Shown here: positions 31,243-64,000 of the stretch, piece after piece
Position numbering within the stretch: the stretch's first letter is position 1
How the letters are laid out: the number at the start of each line of letters is the position of its first letter
DNA from: a virus
DNA length: 64,000 nt
IMG/VR virus record: IMGVR_UViG_3300032898_000001
Location: 31,532 to 95,531 of that record
Direction: 5' to 3' (one strand)
Translations under genes and position numbers: made by a program
Notes under the pieces: model-generated
Told to the model about the DNA's origin: nothing
The model's database searches: none
What the model saw: the letters and a program-made list of their open reading frames with translations, nothing else

Positions 31243-31704
31243 GGTGCTTCCTTCCTGTTCCGGGTCAGATCGTCTCAACGCCCGTGATGATCACGGAGCT
31301 GTGAGTGAACGTGGGCTGGGCGGGAGCCGGGTTCGCGGCACCGGAGATCAAGGCCAGGGCGAGTCCCGCCGCGACGAGGCCGAGGGCGCTCACGCCGAGG
31401 CCCCACCTCGCGTCGCCGCGGTAGTAGGTGACGGGGCCCGCGACCATCGCGATCGCGCCCACGATCAGGTCGAACCAGAGGGCCTGGCTCATCGGGTCGC
31501 CTCCGCCCACGCGACGTCGAAGGCGTGGTTGGCCAGGCTCTCGGCCTCGGTCTCGCTCCGGCGAGTGACGGCGACGGTGACCTCGATGCCGCTGGGCGTG
31601 GTGGCGGAGACCGTGACCCGGTAGTGGCGGTTGATGATGCCGATCGGCTGGGTCTCGATGCGAGCCTGCATGGTAACTCCCTGGTCCGTTTTGCTGTTAG
31701 GACA

Positions 31705-47802: not shown

Positions 47803-49296
47803 ATGGCCGAGTCGCTCTCGGAGATCAAGCTCGAGCGGCTCAAGCACCTCAGGGACCTGCGTGCCGAGCGTCACCGGATCGAGTCCGGTGACGCTCTCAA
47901 GCGTGACTGGCGCGACATCGCTCGGCCCGACCAGCTCCCGCCCGACGGAAACTGGTTCGTCTGGTTGATCCTGGCCGGCCGAGGCTGGGGCAAGTCCCGG
48001 ACCGCGGCCGAGTTCGTCGCCGCCCGCGCCCGGAAATACCCCGGCTCCCGTCAGGCCCTCATCGGCAAGACCATCGGTGACACTCGTGACGTCATGGTCG
48101 AGGGCGAGTCCGGTCTGCTCAGCTGCATCAAGGCCAGTGAGCTCCGCGGCGGTAGCGTCGACTCGGGCTGGAACCGGTCACTGGGGGAGCTGTACCTGGC
48201 CAACGGCAGCCGGTTCGACACCTACGCCAGTGAGAAGCCCTGGCGGCTTCGTGGCCCCCAGTTCCACGGGGCCTGGGCGGACGAGTCCTGCTTCTGGGTG
48301 GACGCCCACAAGGGGACCATGGCGGACACGACCTGGTCCAACCTCACCATCGCCTGCCGCCTCCCGCGGCGCCCGAACTGGCCGGACGACTTCAAGGTCC
48401 AGGTGGTCGTCGCCACCACCCCGCGCCCGGTCGCGCTCCTGCGCGTCAGTGACCCGAACATGATGGCCCCCGGCCTGATGCAGCGTGAGAGCACCATCAT
48501 CACCCGGGGTCGCACGGTCGACAACCTCGCGAACCTCAGCGAGTCTTACAAGGCCAACGTCGTCGCCCCGCTTCTCGGCACCCAGCTCGGTCGACAAGAG
48601 CTTGACGCCGAGATCCTCGAGAACCGGGAAGGCGCGCTGTGGAAGCGCGACTGGATCGACGAGACCCGGCAGGAACCCGTGCCCGCCCCCGACTTCGTTC
48701 GCGTCGTCGTTGGCGTCGATCCGGCCGTCACGTCCGGGGAGGCCAGTGACCTCACCGGCATCGTCGTCGCCGGTGCCGACCGCAACGGCCAGGGCTACAT
48801 CCTCGCCGACTACACCATGCGCGGCACCCCGATGGAGTGCATGAACAAGGTCGTCTGGGCGTTCAACGAGCACAAGGCCGACCGTGTCGTCGCCGAGGTC
48901 AACAACGGCGGTGACTACATCGGCACCCTGCTCCACACCGTCGACCCCGACATCCCGTACCGGCCGGTCCACGCCAGCCGCGGCAAGGCCATCCGCGCCG
49001 AGCCGATCTCGTCCATGTATGAGCAGAAGCGGTTCCACCACCTCGGGTTCTTCCCACAGCTCGAGGACGAGCTCGTGACCTGGGCCCCGATCGACCCGGA
49101 GTCACCGAACCGTCTCGACGCCCTGGTCTGGGCGTGCACCGACCTCAAGGACCTCATCTCGGGCTCCTGGCTGGACGCCTACGGCATCATCAAGTGCGGC
49201 CACTGCCACAAGCCGTTCATGAACAAGAACAACGGGGTCCTCCGGGACCGCTGCCCGCACTGCAGCCACCCCATCCCCCAGCAGGAGGTCGCGTGA
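47803..49296 (+). CDS. Terminase large subunit
   Basis: AGRGWGKSR, LRGPQF..AWADE, VATTP, GRQEL, VGVDPA, AEVNNGG, SPNRLDA. Confidence 0.95.
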   Translation: MAESLSEIKLERLKHLRDLRAERHRIESGDALKRDWRDIARPDQLPPDGNWFVWLILAGRGWGKSRTAAEFVAARARKYPGSRQALIGKTIGDTRDVMVEGESGLLSCIKASELRGGSVDSGWNRSLGELYLANGSRFDTYASEKPWRLRGPQFHGAWADESCFWVDAHKGTMADTTWSNLTIACRLPRRPNWPDDFKVQVVVATTPRPVALLRVSDPNMMAPGLMQRESTIITRGRTVDNLANLSESYKANVVAPLLGTQLGRQELDAEILENREGALWKRDWIDETRQEPVPAPDFVRVVVGVDPAVTSGEASDLTGIVVAGADRNGQGYILADYTMRGTPMECMNKVVWAFNEHKADRVVAEVNNGGDYIGTLLHTVDPDIPYRPVHASRGKAIRAEPISSMYEQKRFHHLGFFPQLEDELVTWAPIDPESPNRLDALVWACTDLKDLISGSWLDAYGIIKCGHCHKPFMNKNNGVLRDRCPHCSHPIPQQEVA

Positions 49297-49870: not shown

Positions 49871-52800
49871 GTGGCCAGTCGCAGGGCAATCATCCGGGCC
49901 GCCAAGGCCTCGGCCCCGTCCGGGCGTCCCACCCTGGGACCGCAGGGAGCGCAGCCGTACTTCGGTGCGGTTTCCCCGGTCGCCATGCAGAACCAGGTCG
50001 ACAACGGCTACGCCTACACGTACGGCAGCTTTCTTCCCCGGCCTCCCGAGACCTTCACTCAGGGCGCGTTCGGCCCGTTCAGCCCGATCCTGCCGGTCCC
50101 GGTCGACACCCCGACCGAGTCCGGTCGCGCCGAGCCGCGTCGCGAGCAGTACGAGGTCGGCTGGGACCTTCCGGTCGGGGAGCCCGGCACCGAGGGCATC
50201 AAGCTGGCCACGTTCCCGACCTTGCGGACCCTGGCCGACCTGTACTCGGTCGCTCGGGCCTGCATTCAGACCCGTAAATCGGAGGTCCGCGGCCTCGAGT
50301 GGGACATCATGCCCACCGCCGACGCCGCGAAGGCCAACAAGGGCAACGAGAAGTGGTTCCGGGACTTCGGCCAGCGCCGCGCCCAGGCCATGAAGTTCTT
50401 CCGCCGCCCCGACCCCGACTACTTCTCGTGGAACACGTTCATCGACGCGTTCCTCGAGGAGATCTTCGTCTTCGACGCGCTCTCTCTGTACCTACGCCCC
50501 AAGCGCGGCAAGGGGATGCGGAAGGGTCTCCTGGGCAGTGACCTGGACTCCCTGGAGCTGCTCAGTGGCCCGACCATCCGACCGCTGTACGGCATTCACG
50601 GTGAGTTCCCGCGGCCCCCGGCTCCGGCCTACCAGCAGTACCTGTACGGTGTGCCCCGGTCCGACTTCATGCGCATGGTCACCCAGGCCGACATCGAGGA
50701 CGCCGGCCTGGCCGGCAGTGCCTGGGGCCAGTTCCGCGGGGACCAGCTCCTGTACCTGCCGATGAACCCGCGCCGGTGGACCCCGTACGGTTTCCCGCCC
50801 ATCGAGCGCGCCCTGATCCCGGTCATGTCCGGCCTGCAGAAGCAGGGATACGCCCTGGACTTCTTCCGGGAGGGCACGGTCCCGGCCGTGTATGTCTCGC
50901 CCGGGGACCAGTCCATGACCCCGAACCAGATCCGGGAGCTCCAGGACGCCCTGAACGCGTTCGCCGGGGACCCGGCGTTCCACCACAAGATCATCGTGTT
51001 GCCCGCCGGCTCCAAGACCATGCCGCAGCGCGACGCGCAGCTCGCCGACCAGTTCGACGAGGTCGTCATGAACCAGGTGTGCATGGCGTTCGACGTCATG
51101 CCCATGGAGCTCGGCATCTCGCCCAAGGTCAGCACCACGATGTCCCCGGGCGCGTCGAACCAGATGGCCAAGATGACCGCGAGCACCGCGGAACGGAAGA
51201 GCACCAAGCCTCTCCTGGCCTACATCTGCGACATCATGAACCAGATCCTGCAGAACGTGGCCGGTCAGGACGACATGGAGTTCGTCTTCGAGGGCCTCGA
51301 GGAGGAAGAGGACCAGGAGCAGCTCACCCAACTTCTCACCCAGCAGATCACCAACGGCATCCGCAGCATCGACGAGGCCCGGGACGAGCTCAACCTGCAG
51401 CCCTGGGGCCTGCCCGAGACCAGCGGCCCCGTCTACCTCAGCCCGACCGGCCCGATCCCGTTCGGGTCCGTTCCGCTCACGCAGGCCCCGGCTCCCGGCG
51501 AGCCGGGGTCACCCGGCAACCCGGCACCCGCCGCCCCGAAGCCCGGAGAGGCCCCGGTCGCCGGCGGTTCCGGAGAGGACGGGGAGGGACCGGCCGCGCC
51601 TCCCGGCAAGCCGAAGCCTCAGCCCACCCCGAGCGGCGGGGACGGCAAGAACTCGCCCGGTCACGCCGCGGCCGAGGCCGCCGACAGCCAGGAGGGTCGT
51701 CAGGCCAGCCGGGCGGGCATGGCCAGCGGCGTCAAACGAGGTGAGGCCTCCGAGAAACCGAGCGAGAAGCCCGCCAACGCCCCCGACAAGAAGTCCACCA
51801 CCTCGTCGACCAAGTTCGTCGTCCCGGCCGGGCTCGAGAAGGCCGTCGACAATGAGCTCGAGGCGCTCAGCCGGCACCTGCGCAAGGGCCGTCAAATCAG
51901 CACGTGGGCCCCAAAGAACGTGCCTCAGGTGACCCTGGCCTGCATCAGTCAGCACCTGGCCAAGGGCCTTGGGGTTGACGCGGCCGTCGCGATCGCCAAG
52001 ACCACGACCCTGGCGCCGCCGGCCGCTCCCCCGCAGCCGGCTCAGGCCCAGACCGTGCCGCCTCCCCCGCCGACCACCGGCGCGAACTGGGCGGGCTGGG
52101 TCAAGGACGCCGCCCTGGCCGACCTCTACGCGCACCTCATCACCGGCGCGTTCCACAAGAGCTTCCACGACGTGGCCGCCCTCGGGGCCGGGGTCCTGAA
52201 CGGCAGCGTGGCGGTCACTCACCAGGTCCTCAAGGGCCTCCTTCACTCCTCGATCGGCAAGCACGTCGGGCCGGTCCTGCAGGACCTGTGGCACGAGGCG
52301 TGGTACCTCGGTGACCGTGCCGGCCAGGCCGCGGTCACCAAGTCCCCGGTCGACTGGGGCCACTGGCAGCTCGGCAAGCCCGGCACGGCCCCGCTCGGGG
52401 AGACCGCTCACGTCTTCGAGAAGACCGTGCTCGGTCCGGGCCTCGAGGTCGCCAACGGGATCGCCGACACGCGACTCGAGCAGGTCGCGCAGGCCATGCG
52501 AGACAGCGACACGCCCGAGGCCCTCAGCCAGAAGCTCAGTGACCTGCTCGACGTTACCAACCGCGCCCTGATGATCGCGCAGACCGAGACCACGCGCCTC
52601 TCCTCGTTCGCGGCCATGAACCGGTACGGCATCGCCGGGGTCATGAAGATCGAGTGGAACGTGGAGCCCGGTGCCTGCGCGGTCTGCCGTGGCAACGCTG
52701 CCCAGGACCCGATCCCGGTCGGGGACGTGTTCAAGTCCGGGGCCGCGGCTCCCCCTCAGCATCCTCGTTGTAGATGTTCCATAGAACCCATGGCCTTCGC

Positions 52801-55090
52801 CGGCGACCTCACCAAGAGCACCGCCCTGGCCGAGCGCCGCGTCGCGATCAACGGCCAGGAGGGCTGGTACGACCCGTACAACGCGGCCGGCGGCGGTGGG
52901 CAGTCCCCGGTTCGGCACTGGGGTGACGGCACCCAGGCCCCCGACGGGGTCCCGGTCACCGGCGGCGTCCCGGGCAACAGCGCCGGCGGGGACTACCCGC
53001 GCTGGGACACCCCGGTCGCGAACGGCTACCAGGGCGGGCTCAACGACCTCAGCGACCCGCGAAACCCGGCCCAGGGGCACGTCAGCGGCAACGACGCCAG
53101 CCAGCCCTACGGGGTCTCTCACCAGACCGACGTGAACGCCCGATCCGCCGTCGGGGTCAACGCCCCGGCCGCGGACCGCTGGCCGTCCGGCCAAACCCAG
53201 ACCGACCAGCCGCCCGGGGTCGTCAACGCACGCCCCGGAGAGGACCCGATCCGCGGGTCGTGGGGCACCACGCAGAAGGCCACCGGGATCGTCGCCGCCG
53301 GGATCGCGGTCCTCGCCGAGAACACCGGCCGGGTCCTCATGCTGCAGCGAGCGATGGGAGACGACGACCCGGCAGCTGGTTACTGGGAGTTCCCGGGAGG
53401 CTGCCTCGAGCCCGGTGAGAACGCGCTGCAGGCGGCCAAGCGCGAGTGGCAGGAGGAAGTCGGGGTCCACCTCCCGGCCGGTACCGTCACCAACCGCTGG
53501 GACGCGTCCAACGGCAAGTACGTGGGATTCGTCTACACGGTCCCGGACGAGAACGGGATCCCGCTGTTCGAGGGCCGGCGGGACGTGCCGAACCCGGACG
53601 ACCCGGACCGGGACGCCGTGGAGGCCGTTGCCTGGTGGGACCCGAGCCACCTGGCCGGGAACCCGGCCATCCGGCCCGAGCTGAAGAGCGACCTCGACGA
53701 CGTGCTCGACGCGCTCGGTCAGGTCACGAAGGCCGCCACAGGCTACCTCGACGGCCCGACCGCGACCCCGGCCGAGGTCCGGGAGGTCATGGCCAAGAAC
53801 TTCCCGCCGGAGGCCCTCACCTGGCTGGCCGACGCGACGTGGCACGGCCCGATGCCGGTCCCCCTGGCCGACATCGACTTCAGCAACGAGAAGACCTGGG
53901 CGGCCCACCACCAGGTCGCGCACGACGATGAGTTCGTGCAGCGGCTCCGGGATGGGGAGAAGCTCAACCCGATCATCCTCATCGACACGCCCAAGCAGCA
54001 CGACTTCATGATCGTGGACGGCCACCACCGGGCCCTGGCCTACCGCAAGCTCGGTGAGAGCCCGATCGCGTACGTCGGCACGACCACCTCCCCGACCGGG
54101 CCGTGGGACGAGACCCACTCGTACCAGCTCAGCCAGGGAGCCAAGGAAGCCAACAAGGCCGCGACCGCCGACACGGTGAAGATCGGTCCCGAGGGCTACG
54201 TCCACGGGTGGATCAAGGTGGGAGTGGGAGTCGACTCAACTCACCTCTCCGTGAAGAAGAATGGCGACGTCGTTCACAAGCCCACCGGCGAGGTCTTGGG
54301 TCACGTCGAGAGGCACGAAGACAGCCCTCGCAAGGGAACCACCACCTTCATCACGCACCACGCCGACGGGACCAAGACGTACGACGGGATCTATAAGCGA
54401 GAGGCCCTGGCCTCGGTCGCGCAGCACCACAACCAGACGGTCCACGCCACGGCCTTGCCGAAGACCGAGGTGGAGCCGCACCCGGCCGTAGACCTGACGC
54501 CTCAGCCCCTGAGTGAGGTCACGTCATCGTCCCCGGTGGGAAGCGCTCAGTGGCGAGCTGACCAGTTGATGACTCAGATCATCAAGGAGGGACCAGCTCA
54601 CCCTCAGACACCACTCAAGGCCATCACGGCCATGCCGCAGGTGGGCAACGACGACAAGGTCCGCGCTGGCTACAAGCTCGCTGAGCACACGATCAAGGTC
54701 CGTAACGACGTCATCCACGGCAAGAACAAGCGCACCAACCTGCCCGGGTGGAACACGCCGACGGGAACCGCGTCCTCGGAGCACGCGACCCTGACCCACG
54801 AGTACGGTCACCACCTGATGTACGCGATGAGCGAGGACCAGTACCAGGACATGCTGAAAGACCTGAACCAGACGATGGGAACGCACCTCAGCGGTACCCG
54901 GTTCGGGTCGGTGCCGATCTCACCTCAGGACAAGGCCCGGATCGTGAACCGCGTTGGCACGTACGCGTCCGCCAACAACAAGGAGCTTATCGCCGAGCTC
55001 TACGCGGAACACCAGCTCTCCCCGAACCCGCGTCCCGCGGCGCAGGTCGTCGGCAAGCACCTCTTCGCGGCTCACGGAGGCGCTCAGTGA
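49871..55090 (+). CDS. Portal protein fused to MuF, Nudix, ParB-like and zincin metallopeptidase domains
   Basis: Portal (YGFPPIE, FFREGTVP, AFDVMPMELG, IDEARDELNLQP); MuF (IAQTETTR..CAVC..PPQHPRCRC); Nudix (WEFPGG..EPGE..AAKREWQEEVG); ParB (IVDGHHRALA); THEYGH..YA...KELIAE. Confidence 0.9.
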   Translation: MASRRAIIRAAKASAPSGRPTLGPQGAQPYFGAVSPVAMQNQVDNGYAYTYGSFLPRPPETFTQGAFGPFSPILPVPVDTPTESGRAEPRREQYEVGWDLPVGEPGTEGIKLATFPTLRTLADLYSVARACIQTRKSEVRGLEWDIMPTADAAKANKGNEKWFRDFGQRRAQAMKFFRRPDPDYFSWNTFIDAFLEEIFVFDALSLYLRPKRGKGMRKGLLGSDLDSLELLSGPTIRPLYGIHGEFPRPPAPAYQQYLYGVPRSDFMRMVTQADIEDAGLAGSAWGQFRGDQLLYLPMNPRRWTPYGFPPIERALIPVMSGLQKQGYALDFFREGTVPAVYVSPGDQSMTPNQIRELQDALNAFAGDPAFHHKIIVLPAGSKTMPQRDAQLADQFDEVVMNQVCMAFDVMPMELGISPKVSTTMSPGASNQMAKMTASTAERKSTKPLLAYICDIMNQILQNVAGQDDMEFVFEGLEEEEDQEQLTQLLTQQITNGIRSIDEARDELNLQPWGLPETSGPVYLSPTGPIPFGSVPLTQAPAPGEPGSPGNPAPAAPKPGEAPVAGGSGEDGEGPAAPPGKPKPQPTPSGGDGKNSPGHAAAEAADSQEGRQASRAGMASGVKRGEASEKPSEKPANAPDKKSTTSSTKFVVPAGLEKAVDNELEALSRHLRKGRQISTWAPKNVPQVTLACISQHLAKGLGVDAAVAIAKTTTLAPPAAPPQPAQAQTVPPPPPTTGANWAGWVKDAALADLYAHLITGAFHKSFHDVAALGAGVLNGSVAVTHQVLKGLLHSSIGKHVGPVLQDLWHEAWYLGDRAGQAAVTKSPVDWGHWQLGKPGTAPLGETAHVFEKTVLGPGLEVANGIADTRLEQVAQAMRDSDTPEALSQKLSDLLDVTNRALMIAQTETTRLSSFAAMNRYGIAGVMKIEWNVEPGACAVCRGNAAQDPIPVGDVFKSGAAAPPQHPRCRCSIEPMAFAGDLTKSTALAERRVAINGQEGWYDPYNAAGGGGQSPVRHWGDGTQAPDGVPVTGGVPGNSAGGDYPRWDTPVANGYQGGLNDLSDPRNPAQGHVSGNDASQPYGVSHQTDVNARSAVGVNAPAADRWPSGQTQTDQPPGVVNARPGEDPIRGSWGTTQKATGIVAAGIAVLAENTGRVLMLQRAMGDDDPAAGYWEFPGGCLEPGENALQAAKREWQEEVGVHLPAGTVTNRWDASNGKYVGFVYTVPDENGIPLFEGRRDVPNPDDPDRDAVEAVAWWDPSHLAGNPAIRPELKSDLDDVLDALGQVTKAATGYLDGPTATPAEVREVMAKNFPPEALTWLADATWHGPMPVPLADIDFSNEKTWAAHHQVAHDDEFVQRLRDGEKLNPIILIDTPKQHDFMIVDGHHRALAYRKLGESPIAYVGTTTSPTGPWDETHSYQLSQGAKEANKAATADTVKIGPEGYVHGWIKVGVGVDSTHLSVKKNGDVVHKPTGEVLGHVERHEDSPRKGTTTFITHHADGTKTYDGIYKREALASVAQHHNQTVHATALPKTEVEPHPAVDLTPQPLSEVTSSSPVGSAQWRADQLMTQIIKEGPAHPQTPLKAITAMPQVGNDDKVRAGYKLAEHTIKVRNDVIHGKNKRTNLPGWNTPTGTASSEHATLTHEYGHHLMYAMSEDQYQDMLKDLNQTMGTHLSGTRFGSVPISPQDKARIVNRVGTYASANNKELIAELYAEHQLSPNPRPAAQVVGKHLFAAHGGAQ

Positions 55091-60381: not shown

Positions 60382-63195
60382 GTGGCTGCGACCCTCACCG
60401 CCGACGGCGAGCTGACGTTCTTCTCGTTTCCCATCGAGAAGAGCGAGGAAACGGCCGACGGCGACGTCATCGTCTACGGGAAGGCGACGGACGGTTCCGT
60501 CGACTCCGACCTGCAGATCGTCGACCCGGACTGGTCGGCCAAGGCCATCGAGGACTGGCTGGACACCGGCGGCAACCTGCGGGTTCAGCACCAGGCTCGC
60601 CGGGACCCGGCCGGGAAGGGCCTCTCCCTCGAGCACGACCCGTCCGGTGGCACCTGGGTCAAGGCCCTGGTCGTGGAGCCGGTGGCCAAGGAGCTCGTCA
60701 AGAAGGGCGTCCTCACCTGCTACTCGGTGGGGATCAGCCACCCGGACATCGTCCCGGACCCGACCGGTAAGGCCATGAACGGCATCATCCGCGGTCGCCG
60801 TGACGGGCTCACCAAGATCTCGGAGCTCTCCCTGGTCGACCGCGGCTCCAACTTCAACAGCAAGTTCCAGCTGGTGAAGGCCGCGGCCGACGACGGTCAC
60901 GCCGAGTTCGTCGGCAAGATGATGGGCGAGACCGACCTCGACGCGTACGCCATGGTCAACTCGCCGAAGGAAACCAAGATCAAGACCACGATCTCGATCA
61001 AGCCCAGTGACCTGGCCAAGCTGCTCGACCAGAAGCACGGCGTCGAGAAGCGGAATTTCGACGCCGGCGTGGGTGGCGGCGTGGACCGCGACAAGCTCCC
61101 GGCGGAGGACTTCGCTGGCCCCAACCGGACCTACCCGATCGTCACCCCCAAGGACGTGCACGACGCCGGCACGCTTATCGGCCACGCCGCCGACCAGGAC
61201 GCCGTCAAGAACAAGATCAAGGCGATCGCTCGGCGGAAAGGTCCCGAGTTCGAGGCCCGGATCCCGGCCTCGTGGAAGACCGAAGACGAGCCCGCGGTCG
61301 TGAAGATCGAGGAGAAGCCGGCCGACAACGCGAAGCCCCTCGAGAAGAAGGCCAAGGTCATCTGCCAGGGCTGCGGCGCCAACCACGACAAGAAGCACTC
61401 CTTCTGCCCGGAGTGCGGCAAGAAGGTCGCGGGTGGCGACCCCGAGGTGAAGAAAAACCACAAGTTCACCTGCCTGGGCTGCAACAGCGACCTCGACAAG
61501 GGCGAGAAGTTCTGCCCGGGATGTGGCAAGAAGAACCCCGGCTTCAACGAGCTCAAGAAGGCCGTACGCGCGGCGCTCAAGGGAGATGACATGGACGACG
61601 AGAAGGACGACGACACCAAGCCGGACAGCGCCGCGGGCGACGACGGCAACGAGGGCGCCTCGGCCACGGACCCGGACGACGAGAGCTCGGACGACGACAA
61701 CGACGCCGACTCCGGTAAGCCGAACCCGGCGGACAAAGTCGTCGACAAGCCCGTCGTGAAGAAGAGCAAGAAGGCGAAGAAGGTCACCAAGGCGACCAAC
61801 GGGGACACGGTCACCGAGGCCGCTCACGCCGAGCACGTCCCGCCGGCCGACGACCTGCCGCCTCACCGCGAGCCCGACGGGACCGTCGTCGCCATCTTCG
61901 AGCGCGACGCCGACATGCCCAGTGACACCACCGGTGACAAGGCCGCCGGCCTGCCGCCGGAGATGGCCGTGCTCAACCGGTTCAAGTCCGTGGGAGTCTC
62001 GACCGACCTCGGTGCGATCCACGACCTCACCTGCCCGGCCTACCACCCGGCCGAAACGAACAAGTGCTTTCCGTACTTCGACCTCACTCAGCTCGACGAC
62101 TCCGCCTGGCAGCAGAAGGCCTTCGACCTGGCCGCATCCGCTCCCCTGGCGCAGGCTCAGCAGGCCACTCGCCTCTGGCAGCACGCCGTCACTCTCAAGA
62201 ACGCGTCCCCCGAGGACGTGCTCGAGATCCGGAACGACCTGCACAAGGCGTTCGCGGACGCCAACCCGGGACCAGGCATGGCCCCGAGTCCCACCCAGCT
62301 GAACCCGAAGAAGTTCAACCGGCCGTACCTCAGCGCCGGGCACGCCGCGGCCTCGCCGGGTCAGGGAGCCCCGAACAAGGCCCCGATGATCGGCTCGGAC
62401 ATCTCGGCCGAGGACTACACGCGGCAGTTCCTGTCGGCCGGTCACGCCGCCGACTCGCCGGCCAACAAGGGCACGGGCGTCCCGACCAACGTCAGCTACG
62501 GCAACCTCAACCGAGAGAACGCGCGGCAGGCCCTGGTCGCCATGCACGACCACATCTCTCAGTCCTTCCCGGCCCTGTGCCCGATGAGTGACGCGGCCTC
62601 CCCGGCCCCGAAGTCGGTGCCGCCAACCGTCGCGGTCAAGGAGGAAGCCGAGCCCGAGGCGAAGAAGGCCCGGCGGAAGAAGCTCGAGAAGGCCGTGCTC
62701 AAGGGGTTCCTCAGCCTCGACGACGCCAAGACGCTCATGGGCTTCGACATCGCGCCCATCCCCGGAGTGCCGCTCGCGGCTGATAGGCCCGCCGAGGTCG
62801 GCAAGGCGGAGGAGCCGGAGGTCACCAAGGCCGCCGTGCTCGACGCCGCGGCCGTGCAGGACATCGTGACCAAGGCCGTGGCCGCCGCCGTCGCGGAACG
62901 CGACGAGGCTCACCTGGCCGCCGTCACGGAGCTGCAGAAGACGCTCAAGAAGCAGGGCAAGATGCTCGACTCGATCGCGGCACAGCCCGACCCGGTCGCC
63001 CCGTACCGCGGGGTGGCCCTCATGAACTCCCCTCAGCCGGGTGCTGAGGTGGTGAAGAGCAGCGCGGAGCGCTCTCGAGAGAACCTGGCAGCCCTGCTCT
63101 ACGAGCAGGCTCGCAAGGACCCGAACCCAGCGCAGCGGGAAGTTGCGTGGGCGGAACTGAACAAGATGGCCTTCGAAAACACCACGTACAAGTAG
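60382..63195 (+). CDS. Prohead (capsid maturation) protease fused to accessory, zinc-ribbon and scaffold regions
   Basis: VYGKATDGSVDSDLQIVD, LRVQH, YSVG, ISELSLVDR (HK97-type protease); RDKLPAEDFAGP..YPI module; four CxxC pairs; coiled-coil C-terminus. Confidence 0.88.
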   Translation: MAATLTADGELTFFSFPIEKSEETADGDVIVYGKATDGSVDSDLQIVDPDWSAKAIEDWLDTGGNLRVQHQARRDPAGKGLSLEHDPSGGTWVKALVVEPVAKELVKKGVLTCYSVGISHPDIVPDPTGKAMNGIIRGRRDGLTKISELSLVDRGSNFNSKFQLVKAAADDGHAEFVGKMMGETDLDAYAMVNSPKETKIKTTISIKPSDLAKLLDQKHGVEKRNFDAGVGGGVDRDKLPAEDFAGPNRTYPIVTPKDVHDAGTLIGHAADQDAVKNKIKAIARRKGPEFEARIPASWKTEDEPAVVKIEEKPADNAKPLEKKAKVICQGCGANHDKKHSFCPECGKKVAGGDPEVKKNHKFTCLGCNSDLDKGEKFCPGCGKKNPGFNELKKAVRAALKGDDMDDEKDDDTKPDSAAGDDGNEGASATDPDDESSDDDNDADSGKPNPADKVVDKPVVKKSKKAKKVTKATNGDTVTEAAHAEHVPPADDLPPHREPDGTVVAIFERDADMPSDTTGDKAAGLPPEMAVLNRFKSVGVSTDLGAIHDLTCPAYHPAETNKCFPYFDLTQLDDSAWQQKAFDLAASAPLAQAQQATRLWQHAVTLKNASPEDVLEIRNDLHKAFADANPGPGMAPSPTQLNPKKFNRPYLSAGHAAASPGQGAPNKAPMIGSDISAEDYTRQFLSAGHAADSPANKGTGVPTNVSYGNLNRENARQALVAMHDHISQSFPALCPMSDAASPAPKSVPPTVAVKEEAEPEAKKARRKKLEKAVLKGFLSLDDAKTLMGFDIAPIPGVPLAADRPAEVGKAEEPEVTKAAVLDAAAVQDIVTKAVAAAVAERDEAHLAAVTELQKTLKKQGKMLDSIAAQPDPVAPYRGVALMNSPQPGAEVVKSSAERSRENLAALLYEQARKDPNPAQREVAWAELNKMAFENTTYK

Positions 63196-63237: not shown

Positions 63238-63721
63238 GTGGCCGCACTTCTCGAGGCGATGGAGCAGGCCGCTCCCGCCGCCAACCCGGACGCGGCTCAG
63301 GCCGACCTGGTCGGCGTGGCCCAGCGCTACTCCACCACCGGTGACGCCATCAAGGCGTCCATGGCGACCCTGGTCAAGGGCGCCGGCATGGCCAAGATCG
63401 GCGGCAACACGCCGCTGAGCAACGAGCGCGACATCACCGTTCGCGCCCACCAGGCCACGCTCGACCTCCGTACCTCCACCTACCAGGGCATCAACGACCG
63501 CCAGTCGGTCGTCAAGTCCATGAACTCCGGCTTCCTGAACCAGTTCGGGAACCTCAAGACCGCCCTCACCACCCCGTCCCTGGGAGAGCAGCTCTCCCAG
63601 CTCGTCGGGATGCTTCCCGGTGGTACCGAGGCCCTGAAGTCGTTCACCGCCGGCAACCTGGGAATTGGCTCGGTCTACGGCCTGGTGCCGTTCGACCTGC
63701 TCGCACCTTCTCGTCTGATCT
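63238..63721 (+). CDS. Major capsid protein, exon 1
   Basis: Follows protease/scaffold with AAGGA RBS; GLVPFDLLAPSRLI, then the frame is broken exactly where intron motifs start. Confidence 0.8.
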
Positions 63722-64000
63722 GAATTTGGGGACGGATCCTCGTTCGGTAACGAACGTGTAAAACTCCGAGAATTGCTGGAACGTCCTGCTAGACCTCAGC
63801 ACCACAACGTGGGGTGAAAACCCGAGCGTGATGGTTTGAAAAGATTGAGGGTAGGGAAAATCAGCAGCCGAGCCCGCCTGATTCGTTCGACGGGAAGGTT
63901 CAGAGACTATGTACGGAGCTCCTCAAATGAGGATGAAGATATAGTCCGATCTGCATGGAAATATGCAGAACTGAGCAGAAATGTCTCAGTCCATCGTATT
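63722..64000 (+). mobile_element. Group I intron (3' end outside window)
   Basis: P AATTGCTGGAA, Q AATCAGCAG, R GTTCAGAGACTA, S AAGATATAGTCC; P1 GATCT/GGATC with U.G; P3 CTCCG/CGGAG; P7 GACTA/TAGTC; P8 and P9 hairpins. Confidence 0.95.

Follow-up and report, generated by a model that had tools for sequence, protein, structure and literature searches.

Introns 2 and 3 of the Orf142 gene of phage Twort, as summarized in PMC10136302 from Landthaler & Shub 1999, are separated by an exon of 23 nucleotides (nt), and skipping of this exon is reported. We describe here a comparable arrangement at the end of a 64,000-nt stretch of virus DNA (the window), which is positions 31,532 to 95,531 of the 95,531-bp IMG/VR record IMGVR_UViG_3300032898_000001 (G000:C1:31532-95531). 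There, an HK97-fold capsid gene is very probably split by two tandem, related group I introns with a 16-nt micro-exon between them. Bare position numbers refer to the window and those with the prefix C1 to the whole record; splice junctions within sequences are marked ^. As in Twort, two related group I introns are adjacent in one phage protein gene with a very short exon between them, and their resemblance raises the question of exon inclusion versus skipping. The present case differs in that the exon is 16 nt, the gene is that of the major capsid protein, the phage host is probably a high-GC actinomycete, and the system is known from sequence. Moreover, the two introns are near-identical only in their 3' J8/7-P7'-P9 segment (~53% identity elsewhere), one of them contains a Vsr-like nuclease open reading frame (ORF), and a skip would shift the reading frame.

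The capsid gene of mycobacteriophage LittleE contains an intron, most likely group I, with an endonuclease gene, and its splicing was shown by reverse transcription PCR and N-terminal sequencing (Pope et al. 2013, PMC3706429); a capsid-gene intron in Tuc2009 is cited in the same paper. LittleE and the present phage both have an endonuclease-bearing intron in the major capsid gene and a high-GC Gram-positive host, and in both the most abundant virion protein would depend on splicing. LittleE's intron is the only one in its gene, and its LAGLIDADG-like ORF runs on the opposite strand, whereas the present gene has two introns and a same-strand nuclease of another family. The two capsid proteins have no detectable sequence relation; when the present protein was compared by tblastn with 50,697 phage records, the one match was to a distant Thermoanaerobacterium phage. 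The original prediction for this DNA, made from the window alone, had presented such an intron as unusual for a capsid gene in a high-GC phage; LittleE is a published precedent, while the dependence on splicing stands.

A counterpart for the nuclease is I-Bth0305I, an 'EDxHD'/Vsr-like homing endonuclease from the recA intron of Bacillus phage 0305phi8-36 (PMC3239194). Both are encoded in a phage group I intron and combine an N-terminal half of helix-turn-helix (HTH)/NUMOD type with a C-terminal Vsr-like nuclease, but direct similarity is marginal (E 0.29), host gene and phage lineage differ, and the ORF described here extends into the ribozyme core at both ends. In Coxiella burnetii 23S rRNA, two close group I introns lie around a 34-nt exon, for which skipping is reported (Hicks et al. 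2011, as relayed in PMC10136302); in contrast to the present locus, the two introns there belong to different subgroups and interrupt a bacterial rRNA gene, which has no reading frame to keep. Genomes of Jug jumbo phages contain about 18 group I introns each (PMC12880540). There, too, essential phage genes are repeatedly split by group I introns and endonuclease genes, but they are distributed among many different genes (terL, nrdD, polymerase), whereas those considered here occupy at least 11 sites in one capsid-gene family.

Each ingredient of the locus is already known; the locus combines them with unusual tightness and does not constitute a new kind of element. Its particular features are the 16-nt spacing, the host gene, the Vsr-like nuclease overlapping the core at both ends, and the family-wide, multi-site picture. 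It offers a compact natural test of how a 16-nt exon is retained between neighbouring group I ribozymes that are in part identical, a question addressed so far mainly with engineered Tetrahymena constructs and in Twort; a skip here would be lethal.

Exon structure of the interrupted gene

The last 127 bases of the record are its first 127 with perfect identity (window 63874 through 64000, + strand, against C1:1-127), an assembly overlap that marks the record as a complete circular genome of 95.5 kb, presented as a circularly permuted contig. Given this identity, intron 1, which runs off the end of the window, resumes at C1:128. Downstream sequence was examined over C1:1-8000 (labelled L004); beyond the junction it contains a 311-codon ORF (C1:261-1196) and then a long, high-GC ORF ending at C1:2632. 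Searching with this long ORF yielded over 1,000 relatives; the majority are uninterrupted proteins of ~600 residues such as P0004, and the closest have short ORFs (P0002, 95%; P0003, 90%; P0008, 88%). Related loci, given as L numbers where needed, were gathered from IMG/VR (80) and from metagenomes (80), two sets that partly overlap. The resulting gene structure is as follows.

Window 63238-63721, + strand: exon 1; from a GTG start through 161 codons to the first base of a Tyr codon
Window 63721-63723, + strand: in-frame TGA across the 5' splice site (T^GA), read from the sequence
Window 63722-64000, + strand: first 279 of the 299 nt of intron 1, from Rfam, homolog boundaries, the same-site homolog in L079 and covariation
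C1:128-147, outside the window: tail of intron 1
C1:148-163, outside the window: 16-nt micro-exon ACCCCGUGUACACCGU, encoding (Y)PVYT(V)
C1:164-1305, outside the window: intron 2, 1142 nt
C1:1306-2632, outside the window: exon 3

Exon 1 encodes a helical N-terminal region and the beginning of a conserved N-arm segment (...GLVPFDLLAPSRLI); compared with the uninterrupted homolog P0004, it shows 63% identity to residues 1 through 157. Exon 3 aligns with the same homolog from residue 164 onward, at 86% identity and without stops. The six codons missing between the two are encoded at C1:148-163, right after the first ribozyme. More than 100 uninterrupted homologs read ...FDLLAPSRLI-YPVYTV-[YF]RNKFPRP across this region; Y158, P159, Y161 and T162 are invariant in 53 of 53 aligned homologs; R165 and N166 of the YPVYTV-[YF]RNKF segment are invariant too. 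Joined, exon 1, micro-exon and exon 3 read T^AC CCC GTG TAC ACC GT^C TAC CGC and give a single ORF of 608 residues that carries the motif SRLIYPVYTVYRNKF, as in the uninterrupted homologs. The homolog motif is restored only by ATC T^...G^AC CCC GTG TAC ACC GT, which places the 5' splice site after T63721. Both introns have U at position -1 and G at the 3' end, and the GC content falls from 0.67 in exon 1 to 0.48 in intron 1. The unspliced product would have 161 residues, ending at the TGA across the 5' splice site. Two single-intron solutions, from U63716 to the G at C1:1305 and from U63721 to the G at C1:1301, were tried and ruled out by the six missing residues of the homologs.

These boundaries agree closely with the original prediction. 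Its 5' splice site after T63721 is exact and now follows independently from the homolog motif; the immediate TGA that it noted in the unspliced frame is there, as ORF 63238-63723 terminates ...CTG ATC TGA; and the C-rich, Tyr-Pro start that it deduced for the next exon from the intron's guide is exact too, the guide TGGGG (63727-63731) pairing with CCCC(G). The intron does lie in the range proposed for it (63700-64000), which holds only the first 279 of its 299 nt, the remainder being at C1:128-147. Three features had been expected beyond the window. The terminal G is found at C1:147. An in-frame exon 2 is present, but only as the 16-nt micro-exon, with the C-terminal exon 1.3 kb further on, and a putative homing endonuclease ORF is present as well but belongs to the second, tandem intron.

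The correct annotation of this phage and its relatives hinges on the three-exon structure. Gene callers now give a 161-residue 'protein', the nuclease and an N-terminally truncated 'hypothetical protein' of 426 residues (P0001) instead of the 608-residue capsid protein, and the same mis-calling affects about a quarter of the related capsid genes in IMG/VR and Joint Genome Institute (JGI) metagenomes. If the three-exon reading is true, a peptide of the virion capsid protein would span SRLIYPVYTVYR.

The identity of the gene was addressed through an AlphaFold2 (AF2) model of P0004, built on a deeper alignment obtained after a profile search of 1.8 billion representatives (predicted local distance difference test [pLDDT] 82.9; predicted template modeling score [pTM] 0.71). 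An earlier model, based on a shallow alignment, reached a mean pLDDT of just 51.7 and was set aside. Foldseek comparison of the P0004 model with the Protein Data Bank (PDB) returned 92 chains at E <= 0.001; all those listed are HK97-fold capsid or encapsulin shell proteins, the best being the Pa223 capsid (1.9e-12), followed by SPO1, SU10, HK97, T5, lambda and encapsulins. These matches agree with the Atlas lead and with faint Pfam matches to SU10_MCP (PF17236; 3 of 72 relatives, best E about 1e-3). Searches of Pfam with the capsid exons and of PDB sequences with the capsid profile gave no match; phrog_13692 ('unknown function') matches the protein at 5.6e-43. The gene order (TerL, portal-MuF fusion, ADP-ribosyltransferase protein, 937-residue protein, capsid gene) fits a head module, and no second capsid gene was found in the record. 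Together, the P0004 model, its HK97-fold matches and the head-module position support the assignment as an HK97-fold major capsid protein gene, in line with the original prediction. Residues 1 through 130 of the P0004 model are helical, and the introns cluster just after them, in the most conserved segment of the protein. Exon 1 approximates to this all-helical, delta-domain-like N-terminal part of ~130 residues plus about 30 more.

Prophage and metagenome-assembled genome (MAG) copies of the capsid gene all occur in Actinomycetota (Streptomyces, Streptosporangiaceae and uncultured bins), which indicates a high-GC Gram-positive host; this phage probably infects an actinomycete. Among these copies, L168 is from Streptomyces sp. 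and L169 and L170 are uncultured Actinomycetota MAGs; the L170 copy spreads 372 residues over 2454 nt, implying an insertion of ~1.3 kb.

The two introns and the nuclease ORF

Intron 1 comprises 299 nt, contains no ORF, and occupies 'site 1' (P0004 residue 157), ending in GUAACAAAAUG at C1:147 (...AAAAUG^). The Rfam model RF00028 (Intron_gpI) matches window positions 63707 through 63968 on the + strand over its full length (model 1-253; 69.2 bits; E 1.8e-15 for the 64-kb window), against a gathering score of 50 bits. The match is far above chance and, with the covariation described below, identifies the predicted intron as group I, as originally proposed. Its elements are listed here, all on the + strand of the window.

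63717-63721: 5' strand of P1, exon GAUCU, pairing with GGAUC 63734-63738, with a U63721.G63734 wobble at the splice site
63727-63738: internal guide, with UGGGG 63727-63731 (P10) and GGAUC 63734-63738 (P1)
63741-63756: P2 hairpin CGUUCG-GUAA-CGAACG, with compensatory variants in relatives
63764-63768: 5' strand of P3, CUCCG, pairing with CGGAG 63914-63918
63905-63909: 5' strand of P7, GACUA, pairing with UAGUC 63942-63946 and forming a pseudoknot with P3
63920-63933: P8, a short hairpin without ORF, 6 of 7 pairs changed on both sides among relatives
63951-63968 and 63971-63989: P9 and P9.1, 13 of 15 pairs changed on both sides

Ten ORF-less introns of this type, from at least five insertion sites and with cores about 75 to 83% identical, were aligned over 70 pairs in 13 helices (P3, P4, P5 and its extensions, P6, the P7 pseudoknot, P8, P9 and P9.1). 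Pairing is found in 95.3% of cells, compared with 78% after shuffling and 27 to 39% when one strand is slid by one to three columns; 45 of the 70 pairs are changed on both sides, a number reached by none of 500 shuffles. In P3, three of the five pairs are altered on both sides while all cells pair; P7 is 96% paired, with the variants GACCA/UGGUC and GACUC/GAGUC. By eye, P7.1 and P7.2 are absent from the introns, and P2, the P5 extensions, P9.1 and P9.2 are present. The stretch joined across the record ends fits this alignment, the P9.2 and tail of intron 1 matching those of relatives. The core of intron 1 is 83% identical to introns at site 232 (L071/L140) and 76% identical to the same-site intron in L079.

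The guides of these introns differ from site to site, always forming a P1 with a U.G pair at the protein-defined junction together with a P10. At site 271 the pairings are GCCCAGC/GCUGGGU with AUUCUUU/GAAGAAU, and at site 142 they are GCUGAAC/GUUCGGU with GUAG/CUAC; at site 157 P1 is GGAUC/GAUCU. In intron 1 the guide UGGGG forms P10 with CCCCG of the micro-exon. The L079 intron has the same P1, and its P10 covaries (UCCG/CGGA, vs CCCC/GGGG in intron 1). The P1 register given by Rfam (UCGUCU/GGACGG) was replaced by GAUCU/GGAUC on the basis of the L079 comparison and the protein-defined junction.

Intron 2 is flanked upstream by ...ACCGU^ and ends in GUAACAGAUCG (...GAUCG^). Its elements, with the nuclease ORF, are placed as follows on the record.

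C1:171-177: guide UAG-GCGG (P10 part, then P1 part)
C1:179-198: P2
C1:205-210/319-324: P3
C1:215-220/275-280: P4
C1:311-315/1194-1198: P7
C1:325-331/1181-1187: P8
C1:261-1196, same strand as the capsid gene: nuclease ORF, 311 codons, GTG start, TAG inside P7'
C1:1203-1229: P9
C1:1231-1251: P9.1
C1:1252-1294: P9.2

Five members of this type were compared, four at site 163 (this phage, L019, L074 and L071) and one nine nt upstream (L018); with the P8 loop masked, 33 of the 73 pairs of the alifold consensus are compensatory. P1 varies between CCGU/GCGG here and CCCU/GGGG in L074, P10 between CUA/UAG here and AUU/AAU in L071, and the fifth P7 pair between A-U here, G.U in L018 and G-C in the others. 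P8 closes around the ORF in four different versions, each complementary: CAUCUGC/GCAGAUG in this phage, CAUCUACUG/CAGUAGAUG in L018, CAUCUGGCG/CGCCAGAUG in L074 and AGUCUGUC/GACAGAUU in L019. Intron 2 is predicted to be a group I intron, with a P1-P9 core and covariation of its own.

As in other ORF-bearing relatives of these introns, the ORF lies in the P8 loop. It starts in the P5 region (GTG here; ATG in L018, L019, L074 and L150), such that its first ~25 codons double as ribozyme core (P4'-P6-P7-P3'-P8), and its UAG stop is the first three bases of P7'; in relatives with CAG instead, the ORF continues through P9 and P9.1. The N-terminal half of the protein is HTH-type. In the C-terminal half there is a match to DUF559 (PF04480; E 1.5e-11), accompanied by weaker ones of REase_MTES_1575 and HTH type. 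Ten intron-borne homologs from different insertion sites share invariant E164, D192, E203, D205, H209 and D218; their profile matches the DUF559 structure 3hrl (E 2.9e-08) and, weakly but co-linearly, the catalytic domain of I-Bth0305I (3r3p; E 0.29). Vsr, DUF559 and 3r3p have been placed in one PD-(D/E)XK group (Steczkiewicz et al. 2012, PMC3424549). The ORF most likely encodes a putative homing endonuclease of the Vsr-like/DUF559 PD-(D/E)XK type, extending the intron-borne examples of a little-studied group. Searches of the genome found neither a second copy of the nuclease nor a further Rfam-detectable intron.

A 28-nt J8/7-P7'-P9 segment of intron 1 (window 63932 through 63959, + strand) recurs in intron 2 at C1:1184-1211 with one mismatch. 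Two further peculiarities touch the same region: the P9 of intron 1 (CUGCAUGG...) resembles that of intron 2 and not the other P9 helices of its own type (CUCACG...), and intron 2 has the A-U fifth P7 pair and the UAG stop where relatives have CAG. The shared stretch and these oddities may reflect sequence exchange between the neighbouring introns.

Proposed splicing and the competing explanations

In the explanation that we favour, the late capsid transcript would fold into two independent ribozymes, each choosing its splice sites by its own guide. Both self-splicing reactions would be needed, with the micro-exon retained, to yield the 608-residue capsid protein with SRLIYPVYTVYRNKF. The micro-exon would serve both introns, its bases 2 through 6 forming P10 of intron 1 and bases 13 through 16 forming P1 of intron 2; these two sets have no base in common. 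The introns use different guides (GGAUC and UGGGG in intron 1, GCGG and UAG in intron 2); that of intron 1 cannot pair with exon 3, and that of intron 2 cannot pair with exon 1. If the micro-exon were skipped, ...AUCU would be followed directly by CUACCGC... and the frame would shift. In phage introns, early in-frame stops keep ribosomes out of the folding ribozyme; here TGA follows at once in intron 1 and TAG after three codons in intron 2. In engineered tandem Tetrahymena introns, differentiated splice-site recognition elements nearly abolish exon skipping (PMC10136302). Homing of intron 2 would probably be driven by the nuclease. At a distance of 16 nt, intron 1 lies well within typical co-conversion tracts and might, speculatively, travel with intron 2. 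The earlier suggestion that the intron could gate late expression gained no support beyond the trivial need for splicing.

Several observations weigh against this explanation. Rfam searches (cmscan) of C1:1-8000 did not report intron 2 even at E up to 1, presumably because its 849-nt insertion in P8 breaks the model, and the ORF-less same-site member in L071 (239 nt), although matched over the full length (34.2 bits; E 2.7e-07), stays below the gathering score of 50. The P1 helices are short (5 bp in intron 1, 4 bp in intron 2), and the shared 28-nt segment could in principle cause mis-pairing and skipping of the micro-exon with its frame shift. The capsid fold was modelled on P0004 (86% identical over exon 3, 63% over exon 1) and not on the joined exons. 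Finally, two soil metatranscriptome runs contained no splice joints; the runs contain only ~5% of the sampled words, and their contigs are short and mostly from relatives, such that they count neither for nor against splicing and give no basis for a habitat.

The same short P1 helices, potentially misfolding 28-nt segment and lack of splice joints in metatranscriptome contigs could be read as signs of a decaying pseudogene in a defective or dead-end phage, in which one or both introns stay unspliced or the micro-exon is mostly skipped and no functional capsid is made; a 54-nt intron-like remnant in the relative L079/L149, perhaps unspliceable, points the same way. We consider this unlikely: none of the three exons is damaged and the constraint on them is obvious (exon 3 being 86% identical to P0004 without stops), the core helices of both introns are all intact, the complete circular 95.5-kb genome has yielded no second capsid gene, and differing guides, as found here, are linked to exon inclusion by the engineering work (PMC10136302). 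Slightly more room, if still little, is left for the view that the pair works as a unit, intron 1 being co-converted through the nuclease of intron 2 and incomplete splicing or skipping being used by the phage. Skipping could then be promoted by the near-identical 28-nt segment, and the unspliced message may supply a free 161-residue helical N-terminal protein resembling a scaffolding (delta-type) domain; if this were true, splicing efficiency could set the ratio of scaffold-like to capsid protein.

The 28-nt repeat first suggested an internal duplication of the 3' core segment, that is, one long intron from T63721 to about C1:1301-1305 with the nuclease in a 3' extension and the YPVYTV stretch as no exon; joining T63721 to the sequence after the G at C1:1301 likewise keeps the frame and reads ...SRLI-Y-RYRNKF. 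It would, however, remove five residues from a segment invariant in 53 of 53 homologs, and the 16 nt encode exactly the missing residues between G^ and U^ flanks with matching P10 and P1. The downstream part, moreover, owns a complete, covarying P1-P9 core, and each half is found by itself, as a complete intron, at the corresponding site of other phages: site 1 (157) is occupied alone in L079/L149 and site 2 (163) alone in L019, L071 and L074, which rules out a single composite element. A long intron is accordingly very improbable. The locus also sits exactly at the end-to-start junction of the contig, and the introns share sequence, as would be expected of a chimeric join made during assembly from repeated intron sequence. 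The perfect 127-bp end overlap is, however, the usual signature of circular assembly, whereas the introns share a segment of only 28 nt; the join rebuilds a complete intron with P9.2 and tail like those of relatives, the correct reading frame is restored, and the independent contig L150 has an analogous tandem pair in its interior. Of all these alternatives an artefact appears the least probable.

Insertions in related genes, and the head module

The capsid gene is split in 19 of the 80 viral and 21 of the 80 metagenome loci, by one to four insertions each. In P0004 numbering these lie at 138, 142, about 147, 153, 157, 160, 163, 232, about 252, 262, 271 and 559, at least 11 sites, seven of which fall inside about 26 codons. 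Insertions of the family are invariably preceded by U (position -1) and end in G, with the common 3' tail GUAACAA(N3-4)G; short ORF-less members in L019, L034, L062, L078, L079, L152 and L154 pass the Rfam gathering score. The clustering of seven sites fits either the idea of a regulated scaffold ratio or plain targeting of the most conserved DNA. The wider family provides material on the movement of introns to new sites, with guides retuned at each.

Short sequences recur at the insertion points. Sites 142, 160 and 163 (L034:4059-4075, L018:3563-3580 and C1:156-170) share (C)NGU^CUAC, a sharing that arises from repeated Val-Tyr codons. The intron-2 type occupies two sites nine nt apart (160 in L018, 163 elsewhere) with the same CCGU^CUAC and the same guide UAG-GCGG, and an intron-1-type intron is found at CGGU^CUAC (site 142). 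These common CUAC sites suggest, without proving, ectopic insertion at short guide-complementary sequences, i.e., reverse splicing.

A tandem pair in L150 (Ga0335081_10039360; L150:186-1530) surrounds a 29-nt exon, TCACGGCTGATCTACCCCGTTTACACCGT. The upstream intron is of the intron-1 type (255 nt, site 153/154), with a divergent P7 (GGCCA/UGGUC) and no GUAACAA tail; the downstream one is of the intron-2 type with a nuclease ORF at site 163. Two further interruptions near residues 252 and 560 bring this gene to four introns in total. The 16-nt arrangement itself (intron tail, exon, next guide) had no other instance when viral and metagenome contigs, from which records close to this one may have been absent, were searched with a degenerate pattern.

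L079 contains, 22 nt upstream of its site-1 intron, a 54-nt element (CAAUGGGGUCC...GAAGAAAAUG; L079:2844-2920, identical in L149) that parts ...PFDL from the codons of LAPSRLI, an exon piece of 22-23 nt. Its boundaries are group-I-like (U^ and G^), its guide GGGGU is complementary to ACCU of the 5' exon, and it has a P2-like hairpin with homology to the 5' end of intron-1-type introns; a catalytic core is missing. Either this is what remains of a dead intron, and the gene is then broken, or it is removed by splicing that needs outside assistance; PMC3160393 discusses small degenerate group I introns (56 to 81 nt).

The neighbouring genes named above as a head module are placed in the window as follows.

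47803-49296: TerL (large terminase), upstream head module
49871-55090: portal-MuF-NUDIX fusion, upstream head module
60382-63195: 937-residue protein, just upstream of the capsid gene

The 937-residue protein has a double zinc ribbon (PF12773) at residues 328 through 382 and a C-terminal part rich in Lys, Ala and Glu. It matches only uncharacterised PHROGs and no protease family; by its position, it could be a protease-scaffold fusion.

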